A DNA stretch of 64,000 nt, taken from NCBI GenBank assembly GCA_963716725.1, contig CAVQUB010000001.1, positions 32,001 to 96,000 of the forward strand. Reading direction: 5' to 3'. Origin of the DNA: an uncultured delta proteobacterium. Lineage in GTDB: Bacteria; Myxococcota_A; Polyangia; Polyangiales; Polyangiaceae. Made by a program: the position numbers and the translations under genes. The stretch's first letter is position 1, and each line of letters opens with the position of its first letter. This document shows positions 4,079-45,670 of this stretch, piece after piece. Below the pieces are notes generated by a model that saw only the letters and a program-made list of their open reading frames with translations, did not search any database and was not told the origin of the DNA.

Positions 4079-4205
4079 GAGCCCAAATGAGCGCGGGTCT
4101 CAGGCGCGAATCCACTCGAACTTCAGCCGCGCGGCACTAGCGAGCAGAGCGCTGCGGCGTCGCCGCCTTCGAGCGCGCGCAAGTCGAGGCGATCCAGTTT
4201 CGAGC

Positions 4206-38304: not shown

Positions 38305-39537
38305 ATGACCACAGCTCGAGTTCTTCTTCGGATCGCTTACAGACAGGACCTGGGTGCTACTCTGGCCTCCGTGGGGAAGACGCAGTTCGCACTACGGGCG
38401 CGATGGGTGACGCTTTTGGAAGCGCTGTACGCGCCGACGCCCGACGACCGTGAATGGGCCAGCGCGGTCGCGAACGCCGGCGACGCGATCTTCGGCGTGA
38501 CCGGGCGCTGCGGCGTCTGGCTGGTGTCGCATCCAGCGCCGTCGCAATCCGTTCAGATTCAGATCGCGGTCGGCACGGCCGCGGAACACGCGCTCATCTC
38601 CGGGAACCAGCACCTCGGCGTCGAGAACATCCGGCGCTTCTTGTATCCGGCGGGGCTGGTGACGACGCACCAAACGTTGGCGCGTGACATGAACGCCGAA
38701 GTGCGCGAGGCCCTCCGCATCGCGCACGAGAGCTTCGATTCCGTCGATGCGCTGGGGCTGCTGGTGCAGCCGAAGCCGGGTGCGGTGGCGGTCCTGTTCC
38801 ACCTCACTCGCCAGCCCATCGAGCTAACGCCCCAGCAGAAGCGCCTGTTGACCCAAGTGGCGCTGCACTTCGAAGTCGCTTGGCGTCTGCGGCTGAACCC
38901 GGACACCGTGCGCGGCGAGATCCTACCGGACGGACGGATCGCCGATCTGGCGGCAGGACAGGTCGACGCAGCGTCCCTCTCGACGCGGGTGCGCGCGATC
39001 GAGCGTGTTCGTACACGGCGTCACCGGAACGAACTCGACGCCATTGACCTGTGGACGGCGCTCGTGGACGGGCGCTTCAGTCTCGTCGAACGCTCCCAGG
39101 GCGGGCGCCGCCGCTACTGGGTCATCGAGAACCCGTCGGAACGTGTGCCGCTGCGGGCCCTGACGCCCGGCGAGGTCGAGGTGATCGCCCAGGCCGCGCG
39201 GGGACTTTCCGCCAAGCTCATCGCCTACTCGCTGGGGATCTCCGAGTCGGCCGTGTCGTCGCGACTGGCGGACGCGGCGAGCAAGGTTGGGACCGGGACC
39301 CGCACCGAGCTGGTGCGCATCGCTGCGCTCCTCGCCCGCGATCCTCGAGCCGGCTTCGCGCTGGAGCTGACGGACGCCGAGCGCAGCGTGCTTGACTTGG
39401 TGGTCCGGGGGTTGAGCAATCGGGAGATCGCGCATATTCGCAATCGCTCCGCGCGCACCATTGCAAATCAAGTCGCGTCGCTCTTGAGCAAAGCGCAAAG
39501 CCCGTCACGGCGTGCCTTGGCGACCCGACTCCTTTGA
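38305..39537 (+). CDS. Transcriptional regulator with two tandem LuxR-type HTH domains
   Basis: LTPGEVEVIAQAARGLSAKLIAYSLGIS and LTDAERSVLDLVVRGLSNREIA...RSARTIANQ; start uncertain. Confidence 0.85.
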   Translation: MTTARVLLRIAYRQDLGATLASVGKTQFALRARWVTLLEALYAPTPDDREWASAVANAGDAIFGVTGRCGVWLVSHPAPSQSVQIQIAVGTAAEHALISGNQHLGVENIRRFLYPAGLVTTHQTLARDMNAEVREALRIAHESFDSVDALGLLVQPKPGAVAVLFHLTRQPIELTPQQKRLLTQVALHFEVAWRLRLNPDTVRGEILPDGRIADLAAGQVDAASLSTRVRAIERVRTRRHRNELDAIDLWTALVDGRFSLVERSQGGRRRYWVIENPSERVPLRALTPGEVEVIAQAARGLSAKLIAYSLGISESAVSSRLADAASKVGTGTRTELVRIAALLARDPRAGFALELTDAERSVLDLVVRGLSNREIAHIRNRSARTIANQVASLLSKAQSPSRRALATRLL

Positions 39538-39710
39538 TCACCTCGCGCGGCTTCGGCGCGTCAAAACTGCGGGTTCCGAGCGATGAGCCGCGCCCCCGCC
39601 GCTTGCCGCAAGCCCCTCCGCTCCCGCCGCTTGCCGCTCTCGACCTCGAACCGCGACGCGCGTACCCTGAGACCGATGCTATCGCGTGTCGGAATGACAG
39701 CGGCGGGCTA

Positions 39711-40166
39711 ATGGCGTCGGTGGGCGACGAGTCGGAGCAAGGCCAACCTGGGGTCGGGCGGCTGTTCATTATCGGCGCTTTGGCCTGCATCGTCGCCGGC
39801 AGCGTGGGGCTGGGCTACGGGTGCCAGTACACCGGCGGCAAGCGGGCGGCGATTGACGACTACGCCGCCGCGCGCCGGGCTGGTCAGGACACAGCCGCGC
39901 CCCTGTTTGCCGACGACGACACTCGCGCGACCGACGCGTGGGTCGCCAAGAGCACGCGTCACAGCGTCTACAACTATCACTCGCGATTCGTCGGCGGTCA
40001 GTCCCGAGCCTGCTTCAGTACGGTGTTCTTCACGCCGGACGGGCTCCGGTGGATCGACGTTCTGCTGCTCGAAGTTCCGGACGGCTGGCGTGTGGCGTCG
40101 CTGAGTGAAGAGCGCGACTGCGAGTGCAAGCCCAAAACGAATCAGCCCTGCGCCATGGTGCCCTGA
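39711..40166 (+). CDS. Hypothetical single-TM protein
   Basis: One hydrophobic segment and a Cys-containing C-terminus. Confidence 0.55.
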   Translation: MASVGDESEQGQPGVGRLFIIGALACIVAGSVGLGYGCQYTGGKRAAIDDYAAARRAGQDTAAPLFADDDTRATDAWVAKSTRHSVYNYHSRFVGGQSRACFSTVFFTPDGLRWIDVLLLEVPDGWRVASLSEERDCECKPKTNQPCAMVP

Positions 40167-40347
40167 TGACGGACGTCCCGGCCCTGTCGCGTGCTGACTT
40201 CTCTACTGCCGTGCGCTGCTCGATGCGGCCTGCCTTCCCTCGACGAGCCGTGCGCATGACCATGATTCGGCCTGAATTGCGCCGCGACGCCCCGAGCACC
40301 CGAGAAACTAGCGCCCCTCCTGCGGCGTATACTCCAGACGAACTCCC

Positions 40348-40911
40348 ATGCGACCGCCGCGCAACAGCCTCGTCGGGCGTCCAGCGCTCCCGTTCGAGCT
40401 GCACGACTCGCACGGCAGCGTCCATCGTCTGTCCAACTACACCGGCAGGTGGCTCCTGCTGGTCTTCCATCGGCACCTGGCCTGACTTCCGTGCCGGGAG
40501 CATGTGGGGCAGTTGTTCCACGAGAAGCCGATGCTCGACAGCCTCGACATCGCGGTGCTGATCGTTTCGTTCGAGAGCCGCGCTTCGGTGGTTCGCTACG
40601 CATCAGATCCGGGGCTGCCGGGCGCGGTCGTGGCCGACACCCAGCGGGAACTCTTCGCTGGTTACGCCATGGGTCGAGCAAGCGTCTACGACGTCTGGGG
40701 CCCGAAGACGTGGTGGGCCTACGCGCGATCCCTGCTCGGAGGCGCGAAGCTTCGGAGCAGTACGGGTGACACCTCGCAGCGTGGCGGAAACGTGCTGATC
40801 GATCCCGAGGGCATCGTGCAAATGCACCACGTCGGACGAGGCCCGTCAGATCGACCGAGCGTGAGTGCGATTTCGGAGGTCGTACTCGCCGCCACCCAGA
40901 GGGGGCCATGA
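40348..40911 (+). CDS. Selenoprotein, peroxiredoxin-like/SelL-related redoxin (UxxC), 187 aa with UGA readthrough
   Basis: MRPPRNSLVGRPALPFELHDSHGSVHRLSNYTGRWLLLVFHRHLA-TGA(40483-40485)-LPCREHV continues in frame into ORF 40504-40911 (QRGGNVLIDPEG...DRP). Thioredoxin-fold sequence on both sides of the TGA. Confidence 0.88.
40490..40522 (+). promoter_or_regulatory. Candidate bacterial SECIS element
   Basis: GGAGCA (40497-40502) pairs with TGTTCC (40514-40519) around a G-rich apical loop, starting 11 nt after the UGA; CGT/ACG can extend the base. Confidence 0.6.
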
Positions 40912-42254
40912 AACCCCTCACGGTCTGCGTGTTTGCCAAACCTCCTCGAGCCGGCCGCGTGAAGACCCGCCTGATCGCCGGCGTCGGTGAGGGAGGCGCT
41001 GCGCAGCTTGCAGAAGCGTTTCTGCTGGACACGCTGGAGTCGCTGCGGAGGCTGCCCGACGTTCGCGTGATCGTCGCAACCACCGGTGACCTCGGTCTCG
41101 ATGTCGGTCCCGTCGAGGTCTGGGATCAAGGTGGTGGCACTCTCGGCCAGCGACTCGAGCGGGTCCTCGGGCGCGCAATCGGGGGCGGCACCCCAGCTTT
41201 GGCCATCGGCGCCGACACACCAGGGCTGCCGTTGGACCTCGTGACTCGGGCCGGGCTAGCGCTCGAGGCCCACCCGGCAGCCCTGGGCGCCTGCGATGAC
41301 GGCGGCTTTTGGGGCCTCGGGCTGACCTCGATTTCCGATGGGCTGCTCGCGGACATCGATTGGAGCACCGAACGGACCTGCGAACAGACGTGCGCTCGGT
41401 TGGTCGGCGCGGGGCTCGTGCCGCAGCTGCTTCCCGGATGGTTCGATCTGGACACGCCGGGTGATCTCGTGCGCCTCCGCCGGTTGCTCGACCGTCAGGT
41501 CGTGCAGGCGCCACGCACACGCGCCTTGCTCGACTCGTTGCTGCCTGCGCCCGCGATGAAAGTCTCGGTCGTGATCCCCGTCCTCGACGAAGAACGGCGG
41601 ATTGGAAGACTCCTGCGAGACCTGTCACGAACGGACGGGATTTCCGAGATCATCGTGGTGGACGGCGGCAGCCGCGATGGCACTCCCGACATCGTCCGCG
41701 CTTTTCCGGACGCACTGTTGCTGGACAGCACCCCGGGCCGGGGACCCCAACAGAATGCCGGCGCGCGCGTGGCCACCGGCGACGTTCTACTCTTCTTGCA
41801 TGCCGACACTCGCCTTCCGGAGGACGCGATGGCTCACATCCGTTCGGCGCTCGCCGATCCAAGGGTCGTGGCCGGCGCTTTTCGTACTTGGACGGTACGA
41901 GATGAGCCATTCGCCCGGGACGTTGCGCTTCCCGCGGCGCTGCTCCACTTGGCCGACCTGCGTTCGCGCTACACGAGCTTGCCCTACGGCGACCAAGGGA
42001 TCTTCGTGCGGCGCGAGGTGTTCGACCGTGTCGGAGGGTTTCCTCCGCAACCGCTCTTCGAAGATGTCGAGCTGTCACGCAGGCTGCGCCGCCAGGGCCG
42101 CATCGAAACGGTGCGCGCTTCGGTAGAGGTGTCAGGGAGGAGATTCTTCCGCCGCCCGGTCCGAGAGACCCTCCTGGTCAACTTGTTGCCGCTGGCTTAC
42201 CGGCTCGGCGTCTCGCCGACGCGGCTCTCCCGCGTATACCGGAACTTCCGCTGA
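40908..42254 (+). CDS. Fused TIGR04282 (DUF2064) plus TIGR04283 (GT2) arsenosugar-associated glycosyltransferase
   Basis: N-half FAKPPRAGRVKTRL, QGGGTLGQRL, IGADTP, DGGFW, DLDTPGDL. C-half VSVVIPVLDEE, VDGGSRD, GRGPQQNAGA, FLHADT, YGDQGIF, EDVEL, SGRRF. Confidence 0.88.
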   Translation: MKPLTVCVFAKPPRAGRVKTRLIAGVGEGGAAQLAEAFLLDTLESLRRLPDVRVIVATTGDLGLDVGPVEVWDQGGGTLGQRLERVLGRAIGGGTPALAIGADTPGLPLDLVTRAGLALEAHPAALGACDDGGFWGLGLTSISDGLLADIDWSTERTCEQTCARLVGAGLVPQLLPGWFDLDTPGDLVRLRRLLDRQVVQAPRTRALLDSLLPAPAMKVSVVIPVLDEERRIGRLLRDLSRTDGISEIIVVDGGSRDGTPDIVRAFPDALLLDSTPGRGPQQNAGARVATGDVLLFLHADTRLPEDAMAHIRSALADPRVVAGAFRTWTVRDEPFARDVALPAALLHLADLRSRYTSLPYGDQGIFVRREVFDRVGGFPPQPLFEDVELSRRLRRQGRIETVRASVEVSGRRFFRRPVRETLLVNLLPLAYRLGVSPTRLSRVYRNFR

Positions 42255-42261
42255 GGCATGA

Positions 42262-43263
42262 ATGACGATCGCCGAACGCCACCACTTGCCAGTTGCCTCG
42301 CATCGCTTTCCTACGATGCTGCGTGCGCACGGGCGGAAACTGCCGTCGCGCGATGTCGTGACCACCTTGCAGGTCAACGTGGGCAAACGTTGCAATCAAG
42401 CCTGCAGACATTGCCACGTGGACGCTGGTCCGAACCGAAGCGAGAGCATGTCGGCAGAGGTCGCGAATAGGGTGATCCAGCTGTTGGCGGCGAGCCCTAG
42501 CGTCGCCACTCTGGACATTACCGGCGGTGCGCCAGAGCTGAACCCGAGCTTTCGCACCTTGGTCATGAAGGCCCGTGCACGCGGCGTCGAGGTCATCGAC
42601 CGGTGCAACCTCACGGTGCTCTTCGAACCCGAGATGGAAGGGCTTGCAGGGTTCTTGGCGGAGCAAGGCGTGCACGTCGTGGCGAGCCTGCCTTGCTACA
42701 CCGAGGAGAATGTCGATCGGCAGCGCGGTCGCGGCACGTTCGAAAAGAGCGTGCACGCCCTTCGGTTACTCAACTCGCTCGGCTATGCCGCCCGCGATGA
42801 GCTCCGGCTCGACTTGGTCTACAACCCTCTCGGCCCGTCGCTACCGCCACCGCAGGCGCCGCTCGAGCAGGACTACCGCGAGCGCCTCGCCGCGGACTTC
42901 GGCGTCGCGTTTTCCCGACTGCTCACCTTGACGAACATGCCGATCCACCGATTCGCGAACGACCTGGCGCGAACGGGTCGACAAGACGCCTACTGGGCCT
43001 TGCTCGAAGAGAGCTTCAACGCCGCGACGCTGCCGGGGCTGATGTGCCGCTCACTGGTCAGCGTCGACTATCGCGGCCAGCTCTTCGACTGCGATTTCAA
43101 CCAGGTGGTCGGGCTGCGCGCGGGGTCGGGGTCGGACTCGCCCTCGACGATCTGGGAGATCGACTGCCTCGATCAGCTGACTGGCTCGTCGATCGCCGTC
43201 GCCGACCACTGCCTGGGGTGTACCGCCGGGGCGGGTTCGAGCTGTTCGGGTTCACTCGCCTGA
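42262..43263 (+). CDS. arsS: Arsenosugar-biosynthesis radical SAM protein (DUF3641-containing)
   Basis: LQVNVGKRCNQACRHCHVDAGP, DITGGAPELNP, IDRCNLT, ASLPCY, LMCR, DCDFNQ, HCLGCTAGAGSSC. Confidence 0.9.
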   Translation: MTIAERHHLPVASHRFPTMLRAHGRKLPSRDVVTTLQVNVGKRCNQACRHCHVDAGPNRSESMSAEVANRVIQLLAASPSVATLDITGGAPELNPSFRTLVMKARARGVEVIDRCNLTVLFEPEMEGLAGFLAEQGVHVVASLPCYTEENVDRQRGRGTFEKSVHALRLLNSLGYAARDELRLDLVYNPLGPSLPPPQAPLEQDYRERLAADFGVAFSRLLTLTNMPIHRFANDLARTGRQDAYWALLEESFNAATLPGLMCRSLVSVDYRGQLFDCDFNQVVGLRAGSGSDSPSTIWEIDCLDQLTGSSIAVADHCLGCTAGAGSSCSGSLA

Positions 43264-43304
43264 AGATTTCGACGCGCCCGCGACCGAAACTCCGAAGCGA
43301 GGCG

Positions 43305-43517
43305 TCAGCGCCGGCTGGCGCGCCACGCATAGAGCGCGCCGAGAGCCGCAGCCGCCATGATCAGCCATCCCGAGATGAAGATCGGCTCGGACCTGGCGCC
43401 GAGCACGCTGACCAGACCGACGAGCGAAGCGGCGAAGGCCGCGGCGTACCAGGCCCTCGGTGAGGCGGGCCGCGGTGGCGTGAGCCGAAGGCGGCGCCGA
43501 AACTCTCGGTCACTCAT
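43305..43517 (-). CDS. Small two-TM membrane protein (70 aa)
   Basis: MSDREFRRR... with two hydrophobic helices; GAGG RBS and ATGA overlap with the reductase. Confidence 0.65.
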   Translation of the reverse strand: MSDREFRRRLRLTPPRPASPRAWYAAAFAASLVGLVSVLGARSEPIFISGWLIMAAAALGALYAWRASRR

Positions 43518-45670
43518 TGAGACCTCGCGGCGCCTCGGCGCCAAGCGTGGAAGCGTTCCAACCACCCGAGCAGCCTTTCGGGGGCATGCGCCTTCTTCCA
43601 CGCCCCCGCGGCGTAGCGGTTTGCTTCGACGAGGGTCGGATAGATGTGGATCGTCCCGAGCAGTTTGTTCAGCCCGATGCGATGCCGCATCGCGAGCACG
43701 AATTCGGCGATGAGGTCGCCGGCGTGCTCGCCCACGATAGTGACGCCGAGGATGCGATCCTTGCCCGGCACGGTCAGCACCTTGACGAAGCCGTGGGCTT
43801 CTTCGTCAGCGATCGCTCGGTCCAAGTCGTCGATGTCGTAACGGGTCACTTCGTAGGCGATGGCCTTCTCCTGGGCCTCCTGTTCGCTCAGACCGACCCG
43901 CGCCACCTCGGGATCCACGAACGTGGCCCACGGAATGACGGAGTAGTCGGCGCGGAACTTCTTGAGAGGATCGAAGAGCGCGTTGACGGAGGCGTACCAA
44001 GCCTGGTGCGCGGCTGTGTGGGTGAACTGGAACGGGCCAGCGACGTCCCCAGCGGCATAGATGTTCGGGAAGCGCGTCTGGAGAAACTCGTTGACCTCGA
44101 CGGTGCGGGCCACCGGAACGCCCAGCTCCTCGAGACCGTAGCCCTTCACGTTTGCCGCTCGGCCCACGGCTACGAGCATTCGGTCGAACGGGATGCGCAC
44201 CTCGCGACCGGCGTGTTCGGCGACCAACTCGTTCTGTCCCTTCGCGACCTCGACACGCGTCGCGACGTGCTCGACCCGGACATCGATCCCCTCTTGCACG
44301 AAGCGGGCTCGGACGACCTCGGACACCTCGGGATCCTCCCGGGGCAACAGTCGCGGCAGCATCTCGACCTGCGTCACCCTCGACCCGAGGCGTGCGAAGG
44401 CTTGGGTCAGCTCCGAGCCGATGGGGCCTCCTCCGAGCACGACCAGGCGCGGGGGCAGCTCCCGGAGGTCCCACAGGTTGTCCGATGTCAGAACGTCGAT
44501 CTCGTCGAGGCCGGGGATCGGCGGAACGAACGGCCGCGCGCCGGCCGCGATCACGATGGAGCGTGTCGTGAGAGTGCGCTTGCCCGCGGGCAGTGTTACC
44601 TCGACGCTCCAGGGCGTCGTGATTTTGGCGCTGCCTTCGAGCACCTCGACCCCAAGCTCCGTGTACCGCTCGACCGAGTCGTGGGGCTCGATGGCTTTCA
44701 CGACGCGCTGGACGCGATCCATCACTTCACCGAAGTCGACCTCGGCGCTGGCGCTCTTGATGCCAAACTGCTTCGCGCGCGCGATGTGGGACAGGAACTT
44801 GGCGGATCGCAGCAGCGCCTTCGATGGCACGCAGCCCGTGTTCAGACAGTCTCCGCCCATCTTGTGCTTCTCGACGAGCGTGACTTTGGCTCTGAGAACC
44901 GCCGCGATGTACGCGGTCACCAGACCCGCACTCCCCGCGCCGATCACGACCATGTTGCGGTCGAAGCGCTTGGGCTTCTTCCATCCGGAATAGATCCGCC
45001 GCGCCGCGAGCCAGCTCGAGAGTTTCTTGGCGGCGAGGGGCAAGACGCCGAGCAACGCCAGGGAGCCCAACACGCCCGCCGACAGCACGTCTCCAATCGA
45101 CCCGAGCTCGGCCAGGCGCGTCCCCGCGTTCACGAAGACCACCGTGCCAGCGAGCATTCCGGCCTGGCTGACCCAAAAGAAGGTCCGGGTGCGGATCGAC
45201 GTGAGTCCCATCAGCAGGTTCACCACGAAGAAAGGAAACGCCGGCACCAGCCGGAGAGTGAACAAGTAGAACGCACCGTCTCGCTCGATGCCCCGATCGA
45301 CGGCCTCGAGTTGGTTCGCGAAGCGCTCCGCAACCCAGTCGCGGAGCACGAAGCGGGAGATCAAGAAAGCGAGCGTGGCCCCGATAGTCGACGCGATCGA
45401 CACGAGCAACGTACCCCACACGACACCGAACAGCGCTCCAGCACCGAGCGTCATGACCGCGGCCCCGGGGAGCGATAGCGCCGTCACGGCGATGTAGACG
45501 GCGACGAAGAGCGCGCCCGCCCGCACCGGGCTTGCGCTCGCAAGCTCCGCAAGACGAACGCGGTTCGCCTTCAAAACGTCGAAGTCGAGGCTGCGGCCCA
45601 GGTCGAACACGAAAAAGATCGCGACGGCGCAAACCAACGCCAGAGCGATCAGTACCCTCTTGGTGCTCAT
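43514..45670 (-). CDS. TVP38/DedA (VTT) domain fused to class I pyridine nucleotide-disulfide oxidoreductase (MerA/LPD-like)
   Basis: N-terminal SLPGAAVMTLGAGALFG...LRLVPAFPFFVVN; GAGSAG, GGDCLNTGCVPSK redox CxxxxC, GGGPIG, YAAGD, HIYPTLVE. Confidence 0.93.
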   Translation of the reverse strand: MSTKRVLIALALVCAVAIFFVFDLGRSLDFDVLKANRVRLAELASASPVRAGALFVAVYIAVTALSLPGAAVMTLGAGALFGVVWGTLLVSIASTIGATLAFLISRFVLRDWVAERFANQLEAVDRGIERDGAFYLFTLRLVPAFPFFVVNLLMGLTSIRTRTFFWVSQAGMLAGTVVFVNAGTRLAELGSIGDVLSAGVLGSLALLGVLPLAAKKLSSWLAARRIYSGWKKPKRFDRNMVVIGAGSAGLVTAYIAAVLRAKVTLVEKHKMGGDCLNTGCVPSKALLRSAKFLSHIARAKQFGIKSASAEVDFGEVMDRVQRVVKAIEPHDSVERYTELGVEVLEGSAKITTPWSVEVTLPAGKRTLTTRSIVIAAGARPFVPPIPGLDEIDVLTSDNLWDLRELPPRLVVLGGGPIGSELTQAFARLGSRVTQVEMLPRLLPREDPEVSEVVRARFVQEGIDVRVEHVATRVEVAKGQNELVAEHAGREVRIPFDRMLVAVGRAANVKGYGLEELGVPVARTVEVNEFLQTRFPNIYAAGDVAGPFQFTHTAAHQAWYASVNALFDPLKKFRADYSVIPWATFVDPEVARVGLSEQEAQEKAIAYEVTRYDIDDLDRAIADEEAHGFVKVLTVPGKDRILGVTIVGEHAGDLIAEFVLAMRHRIGLNKLLGTIHIYPTLVEANRYAAGAWKKAHAPERLLGWLERFHAWRRGAARSQ

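Follow-up and report, generated by a model that had tools for sequence, protein, structure and literature searches.

A SelL-related redoxin gene with an in-frame UGA, very probably read as selenocysteine, in an uncultured delta proteobacterium

Among the described relatives of the redoxin considered here, eukaryotic SelL carries two selenocysteines (Sec, U) arranged in a UxxU diselenide motif. It is called 'a Prx-like protein' in the part of PMC2398784 that was available, which also lists "Prx-like 1, pfam00578, UxxC, 225 sequences", and a table in the available part of PMC13188914 includes a "Prx-like thiol:disulfide oxidoreductase, PF00578, UxxC/UxxU" among bacterial selenoproteins. As far as these portions of the two papers go, redoxins of the UxxC Prx-like type count among the predicted bacterial selenoproteins that have been known longest, and the Prx-like bacterial selenoproteins were predicted there by the same logic as the one applied below, i.e. 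a Cys/Sec pair combined with a bacterial SECIS (bSECIS) element. The best solved full-length relative is human prostamide/PGF synthase (PRXL2B; 9us9/9usa), in which Cys takes the place of Sec.

The gene described here lies on the forward strand of the window, i.e. the whole stretch of 64,000 nucleotides that was analysed (G+C of 67.6%), and runs from an ATG at 40348 to a TGA stop at 40909–40911. The CDS (40348–40911, stop included) gives 187 residues when its internal TGA is translated as U. As the preliminary description had stated, letters and translation display a frame that is open from this ATG save for just one TGA, at codon 46, in the context FHRHLA-TGA-LP-C, and the plain list of open reading frames presents the gene as 40504–40911 only. 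From the codon alignment of orthologues and paralogues, the UGA at 40483–40485 is assigned to U46, the first position of UxxC, and the second position is provided by the TGC codon of Cys49 (40492–40494), presumed to be the resolving residue. No Shine-Dalgarno-like motif was seen upstream of the ATG at 40348. The interval 40348–40911 is almost certainly one real, intact gene that annotation has missed, and its UGA is almost certainly decoded as selenocysteine. The whole reading, in which this intact SelL-related redoxin gene has its UGA decoded as Sec with the help of a downstream hairpin and yields a Sec46–Cys49 redox site, is held to be very probable.

On its sequence and structural model, the product is predicted to be a small cytoplasmic oxidoreductase of thioredoxin fold with an active site Sec46-Leu-Pro-Cys49. 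The NCBIfam model NF040769, "SelL-related redox protein", gives it 162.8 bits, for a cut-off of 120, when C is substituted for U, in agreement with its earlier label of 'SelL-related redoxin', and the alignment is nearly end to end (residues 12–178 on model positions 2–172 of 173). In a six-frame search of the genome the gene scored 154.1 bits against the same model, and its orthologues from the same taxonomic family likewise score above the cut-off. Pfam identifies AhpC-TSA (56.2 bits, cut-off 26, residues 9–158) and AhpC-TSA_2 (PF13911; 41.4 bits, cut-off 27, residues 56–163), and Pfam and NCBIfam matches extend across TGA codon 46. As PF13911 exceeds its gathering score and a CxxC-type motif stands where helix 1 of the thioredoxin fold begins, the protein falls within the Peroxiredoxin-like 2 group (PF13911, PRXL2B type). 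The AlphaFold2 model, computed from 76 aligned full-length relatives, has a mean pLDDT of 90.7 and a pTM of 0.88, and locates U46 between strand 35–41 and helix 47–58, where redoxins usually have their active site. In alignment A3 (76 sequences), residues F40, H41, R42, H43 and L44 ahead of the TGA are nearly invariant, and L47, P48 and C49, which come after it, vary little or not at all, C49 being the same in 76/76.

The canonical peroxiredoxin motif, PxxxT/SxxC(U), quoted as PxxxTxxC/U in the available part of PMC13188914, is absent from this protein, whose sequence reads V-F-H-R-H-L-A-U, with His43 in place of Thr/Ser and no Pro at −7. Because of this absence, the protein is read as a CxxC-type redoxin with Sec in the first position, and not as a classical peroxidase.

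How does this redoxin compare with the systems already described? It is a member of NF040769, a curated NCBI model of precisely this subfamily, from end to end, with no difference found; neither "SelL-related" nor the accession NF040769 was found in the literature searched. With the Prx-like thiol:disulfide oxidoreductase, or Prx-like 1, it has in common the Pfam domain and a UxxC motif with Sec first, and it is presumed to be of that same sub-family. The redoxin belongs to an already catalogued bacterial selenoprotein family, with relatives present in Geobacter and further Desulfobacterota (among the best 80 of 197 relatives), and the gene itself is an annotation miss. With eukaryotic SelL it shares a fold family of peroxiredoxin-like-2 type, as judged by the NCBIfam name, and a Sec placed first in the redox motif. 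It differs from SelL in having one Sec, in a UxxC motif whose second position is Cys in 76/76 sequences of A3, so that the UxxU of eukaryotic SelL proper is lacking, and in having a bacterial in-frame hairpin where eukaryotic SelL uses a 3'-UTR SECIS. PRXL2B aligns its CxxC to the UxxC of the redoxin, its second Cys facing C49 (full-length sequence profile, E of 1.5e-14), and Foldseek superposes the two folds with an E of 5.2e-11, an rmsd of 2.0 Å over 167 columns and TM scores of 0.73/0.83. It is nevertheless only 18% identical and has Cys for Sec, and a bacterium is not expected to have a prostaglandin as substrate.

Codon 46 was followed across homologues at three levels. In a collection of 5.8 billion proteins, a threshold of E ≤ 0.001 kept 22 homologues out of 201 candidates: 21 of these are pieces of 109–141 residues that start past the TGA position, and the lone full-length one (P0009) has CLPC at the motif. 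Such systematic cutting of homologues at the same position is characteristic of a recoded stop. Within the same taxonomic family, a scan of 101 genomes with NF040769 (a sample of 100 others plus this genome) gave matches at 28 places in 24 genomes, of which tblastn aligned 22 across residue 46, the other 6 being left out. Residue 46 corresponds to TGA at five of these 22 places (this gene, L023, L024, L039 and L047), L023 being a 47%-identical orthologue of the redoxin, and to Cys, encoded by TGC or TGT, in all 17 aligned paralogues. The third scan took one genome per species and started from three C-terminal peptide motifs, which made the choice of orthologues blind to the TGA. The best 80 of 197 relatives were kept; they are 41–53% identical to the redoxin and, judged by record titles, come from Desulfobacterota, Acidobacteriota, Myxococcota, Planctomycetota, Actinomycetota, Chloroflexota, Bacteroidota and others. 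Among these best 80 of 197, U46 is matched by TGA in 79 and by TGT in one (L113), and the stop codons of the orthologues are a mix of TAA, TAG and TGA. The column, at which C or U had been expected from the outset, contains Cys or Sec-type TGA, and Trp is present in no homologue. Conserved coding on both sides of the codon, a Cys/Sec pair and a TGA kept in orthologues, the features by which bacterial selenoproteins are tested, are all found here.

The same codon could be inspected in a related strain. Runs X5 and X12, wastewater metagenomes from two other studies, contain contigs that span 40300–40950 in one piece and show 25 differences from the window (~96% identity), and no difference falls at 40483–40485 in the contigs of runs X4, X5 and X12. 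The TGA, whose confirmation in reads had been proposed, is in this way retained in independent sequence, that of a 96%-identical strain sampled by two other studies. There are 19 differences within the CDS, 12 of them at third codon positions and 8 amino-acid-changing, a pattern that shows purifying selection on the frame on both sides of the TGA. The only match in an RNA library (run X20) was one contig of 151 nt, covering 40528–40675 and belonging to the related strain, for which DNA carry-over is possible; a claim of transcription was discarded, this single contig being insufficient to sustain it.

In E. coli fdhF, the upper stem-loop of the SECIS is situated 11 nt after the UGA. The preliminary description had drawn an analogy with this spacing from a hairpin made of GGAGCA (40497–40502) and TGTTCC (40514–40519). 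Its letters are indeed present, with an 11-nt loop and a start 11 nt after the TGA, but the pairing is not conserved: over 84 Sec-type sequences, 68.7% of positions are paired against 67.7% in shuffles, and the covariation score is 0.063 against 0.067 in shuffles, i.e. no covariation. This hairpin was consequently rejected as a functional element. The conserved stem and this hairpin overlap and have their 3' arm in common, but the former begins 18 nt past the UGA and has its loop 25 nt past it, so that the fdhF spacing is not applicable.

The conserved structure is a SECIS-type hairpin within the CDS, at 40504–40521 of the forward strand, with a 5' arm at 40504–40510, an AGUU loop at 40511–40514 and a 3' arm at 40515–40521. 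An eighth pair, U40503–G40522, is possible in this genome, and the minimum free energy (MFE) fold pairs 40503–40510 with 40515–40522. Covariation was assessed on a gap-free alignment of 84 Sec-type sequences covering 65 nt from the TGA, in which RNAalifold, unaided, proposed the same stem (columns 22–28 with 33–39, loop in columns 29–32). Pairing is kept in 95.7% of 588 cells, with double changes in six of the seven pairs, and the covariation score of 0.555 compares with 0.177 in shuffles and with at most 0.199 in slid registers; none of 500 shuffles scored as high, a count that overstates independence, as the 84 sequences are related to each other. All seven pairs are complete in 60 of the 84 sequences, six in 23 and five in one. 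The MFE is ≤ −7.5 kcal/mol in 78/84 hairpins and reaches −9.7 kcal/mol in this gene. Loop letters G30 and U32 are invariant and A29 and U31 at least 90% conserved, to be read with the fact that the hairpin is inside coding sequence and that the Gln-Leu codons of the loop are also conserved at the protein level in Sec forms. The 17 Cys paralogues provide a control for this protein-coding constraint: they mostly form three of the seven pairs, have an AGTT loop in 0/17 cases and a mean MFE of −4.5 kcal/mol. The lone TGT orthologue, L113 (codon at position 4109), has kept the AGUU loop with only five of the seven stem pairs, and on its sequence looks like a recent replacement of Sec by Cys with a decaying SECIS. 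In the related strain, two differences in the 3' arm (40517 T>C and 40518 C>T) convert a G·U into a G-C pair and a G-C into a G·U pair, maintaining the pairing while changing Phe57 to Ser, and a third (40521 C>A) opens the terminal pair only.

Taken singly, a 63-nt stretch of this gene folds no better than shuffles (z of 0.28; 122/200 shuffles fold as well), and the case for the hairpin therefore rests on comparison. The criteria published for bSECIS elements, as given in the available part of PMC13188914, comprise an apical loop of 3–9 nt, an upper stem of 4–16 bp, a G in the first two loop positions, a UGA-to-loop spacing of 16–37 nt and an MFE ≤ −7.5 kcal/mol. Applied by hand to the covarying hairpin, and as far as that part of the source describes them, these criteria find a loop of 4 nt with G second and U third, a stem of 7–8 bp, a spacing of 25 nt and an MFE of −9.7, all within the published ranges, which answers the call for a SECIS check on this locus. 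The hairpin has in common with the bSECIS model and fdhF a location inside the coding region, immediately after the UGA, and a small loop with G then U; it differs in a stem without a bulged U, in its four-base AGUU loop and in the 18 nt between UGA and stem. A scan of the whole window with Rfam at gathering thresholds returned 0 matches, so the hairpin is covered by no curated SECIS family.

Decoding of a UGA as Sec depends on dedicated genes, and a search for selA, selB, selC and selD, as suggested beforehand, recovered all four in the genome, each above its curated cut-off: selA with 467 bits, selB with 281, selD with 302 and the tRNA-Sec gene with 70, the latter having a tca anticodon according to ARAGORN. 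The selA, selB and tRNA-Sec genes are within ~12 kb on contig C32 (G000:C32:262008-273859; L001, L002, L014). The tRNA-Sec gene is found ~280 nt from the start of selB, on the opposite strand. The genome is a binned draft (84% completeness, 3.9% contamination), so that only binning links the machinery genes found on other contigs to this organism. The earlier inference that the TGA encodes Sec is upheld by the Cys/Sec column, the covarying hairpin, the sel genes and the contigs that keep the TGA.

Other in-frame TGA codons were noticed in the same genome. The selD gene (L010, G000:C6:225868-229791) has one at locus position 1531, in the motif GGGUARKLP, indicating that SelD is here itself a selenoprotein. 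A second redoxin-type selenoprotein candidate (L022, G000:C15:79399-82632) has a TGA at locus position 1540 in the motif HW-U-PYC; upstream, its frame contains an N-terminus similar to a lipoprotein signal peptide, and a GCAGCUC-GGG-GAGCUGC hairpin comes after the UGA. An arsM-like match recorded with '1 TGA' (L131, G000:C32:126962-130747) was rejected as a selenoprotein, its lone in-frame TGA being at the match end and looking like an ordinary stop.

On these grounds, a working scheme for the gene can be proposed. During translation, the UGA at 40483–40485 would be decoded as Sec rather than as a stop: SelB carrying Sec-tRNA(Sec) would, by analogy with known bacterial systems, bind the AGUU hairpin when the ribosome arrives at the UGA, delivering Sec, with SelA, SelB, tRNA-Sec and SelD being supplied by the genome. 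In the protein, following redoxin chemistry, U46 would attack the substrate and C49 would resolve the adduct as a U46–C49 selenenylsulfide, which an upstream reductase would then reduce, the protein cycling between a selenol/thiol and a selenenylsulfide state. Its role may be that of a reductase of disulfides or of other oxidised substrates, as for CxxC redoxins.

Could the TGA be read otherwise? A nonsense mutation of a Cys codon, TGC or TGT, to TGA would have left a pseudogene, from which the fragment 40504–40911 or nothing would be made, and this would agree with a plain ORF list that stops at the TGA and with a single-sequence fold that is not significant. This origin is nevertheless highly improbable, since the TGA is shared by 79/80 orthologues (the best 80 of 197) of many phyla and by the 96%-identical strain, both of its flanks are conserved in frame, a covarying hairpin follows it in TGA forms only, and a fragment starting at 40504 would be deprived of strands of the fold and of the active site. 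Reading of the UGA without selenium, as Trp, Cys or Arg through a near-cognate tRNA or in a code where TGA is a sense codon, would likewise give an open frame, with nothing specific to favour it. Against it, TGA terminates this very gene at 40909–40911, where the family model ends as well (172 of 173), orthologue stops are mixed between TAA, TAG and TGA, the column is Cys or TGA with Trp in no homologue, and a complete Sec machinery with a tRNA-Sec (tca) is present; we consider such a reading extremely unlikely.

A different question is whether a genuine selenoprotein could work as a peroxidase, with a peroxidatic Sec, rather than as a CxxC-type reductase of disulfides or other substrates. The 56.2 bits of Pfam AhpC-TSA, the many peroxiredoxins among the fold matches, and weak NCBIfam matches to PrxQ and PrxU, far below their cut-offs, point in this direction. 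The missing PxxxTxxC/U motif, with His43 three residues before U46 and no Thr/Ser, argues against it, as does the U-x-x-C arrangement, which is that of redoxins and of prostamide/PGF synthase, the best full-length match by both sequence and fold. Peroxidase function thus appears rather unlikely, and a Sec-decoded redoxin of CxxC type is the reading retained in what follows.

The genomic surroundings of the redoxin gene include genes of ArsS type. Downstream on the same strand, 40908–42254 encodes a fused TIGR04282 + TIGR04283 'arsenosugar biosynthesis glycosyltransferase' (DUF2064 + GT2), recognized by NCBIfam (TIGR04283 with 218.4 bits for a cut-off of 182, TIGR04282 with 134.3 for 134) and by Pfam (DUF2064, Glycos_transf_2), and its ATG at 40908 overlaps the redoxin stop as ATGA. 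Next comes an ArsS-type radical SAM protein (TIGR04167) in its Cys form (42262–43263, forward strand; 420.4 bits for a cut-off of 300; Radical_SAM + DUF3641), whose ORF has no in-frame TGA and a C-terminal end reading ...GCTAGAGSSCSGSLA. A convergent gene on the reverse strand (43514–45670) fuses a VTT/DedA-type membrane domain to a FAD pyridine-nucleotide-disulfide oxidoreductase (Pfam VTT_dom, Pyr_redox_2, Pyr_redox_dim), and scores 503 bits with NF004991, below the cut-off of 620. There is no arsM in the window, and arsM-like genes are located on contigs C15 and C32 of the genome. The redoxin is probably co-translated with the glycosyltransferase/ArsS gene set in this genome, and may be co-transcribed with its downstream genes. 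A scan of 39900–43600 retrieved 0 promoters and 0 terminators, so that an operon cannot be delimited on this basis. On the other side of the redoxin, between 35715 and 39537, an 865-aa WD40/PD40 beta-propeller ORF on the reverse strand shares ~80 nt with the beginning of a forward-strand ORF of 435 aa, the latter containing two GerE/LuxR HTH stretches, and a 210-aa ORF at 39534–40166 has no family match.

Is this neighbourhood shared by other redoxin loci? VTT/FAD-oxidoreductase genes are near the redoxin in 7 of 85 loci, i.e. this one and six from Desulfuromonadales/Geobacter. In these six, the VTT and FAD domains are directly upstream of the redoxin, the VTT gene has its stop overlapping the start of the redoxin gene, and four of the six have ArsS after it. 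The neighbours at 44 long redoxin loci are mixed, including heavy-metal P-type ATPases (5), rhodaneses (3), VTT proteins (3) and efflux parts (3). The nearest orthologue (in genome G047) has no glycosyltransferase, ArsS or VTT-FAD genes within ~6 kb, and a redoxin was found at 0/17 ArsS loci of other genomes of the same taxonomic family within the DNA examined. On these four observations, within the loci and DNA covered, the idea of the redoxin as a core part of the ArsS module is rejected. As the linkage is not general, the ArsS link is treated as an occasional, lineage-specific recruitment, and the arrangement in this genome suggests a local role of redox helper beside the glycosyltransferase/ArsS set. 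A more elaborate proposal is that the redoxin, instead of being a general housekeeping one, was recruited as the dedicated selenol/thiol redox partner of the ArsS/glycosyltransferase module, where it would keep an arsenic (or selenium) intermediate or the Cys-rich C-terminal domain of ArsS reduced. The VTT-FAD disulfide reductase, anchored in the membrane, would regenerate the oxidised redoxin, and there would have been at least two such recruitments, one in this genome and one in Desulfuromonadales/Geobacter; we regard this proposal as quite unlikely.

The practical value of the finding is one of annotation. Gene callers cut this gene at its TGA, as happened to 21/22 database homologues, and as a result of this shortening the active site is missing from most catalogues. 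For the organism, the gene represents one more Sec redoxin where Sec is already used in SelD and in a second redoxin, and its surroundings indicate an occasional link between such redoxins and organoarsenical gene sets of ArsS type. For the family as a whole, the comparison gives a sharply defined SECIS consensus, ...GC-AGUU-GC..., situated 25 nt past the UGA, whose loop is (nearly) invariant and whose stem covaries across many phyla. This consensus could be used as a search model for family members, and the hairpins could constitute a natural test set for SelB recognition outside Enterobacteria.
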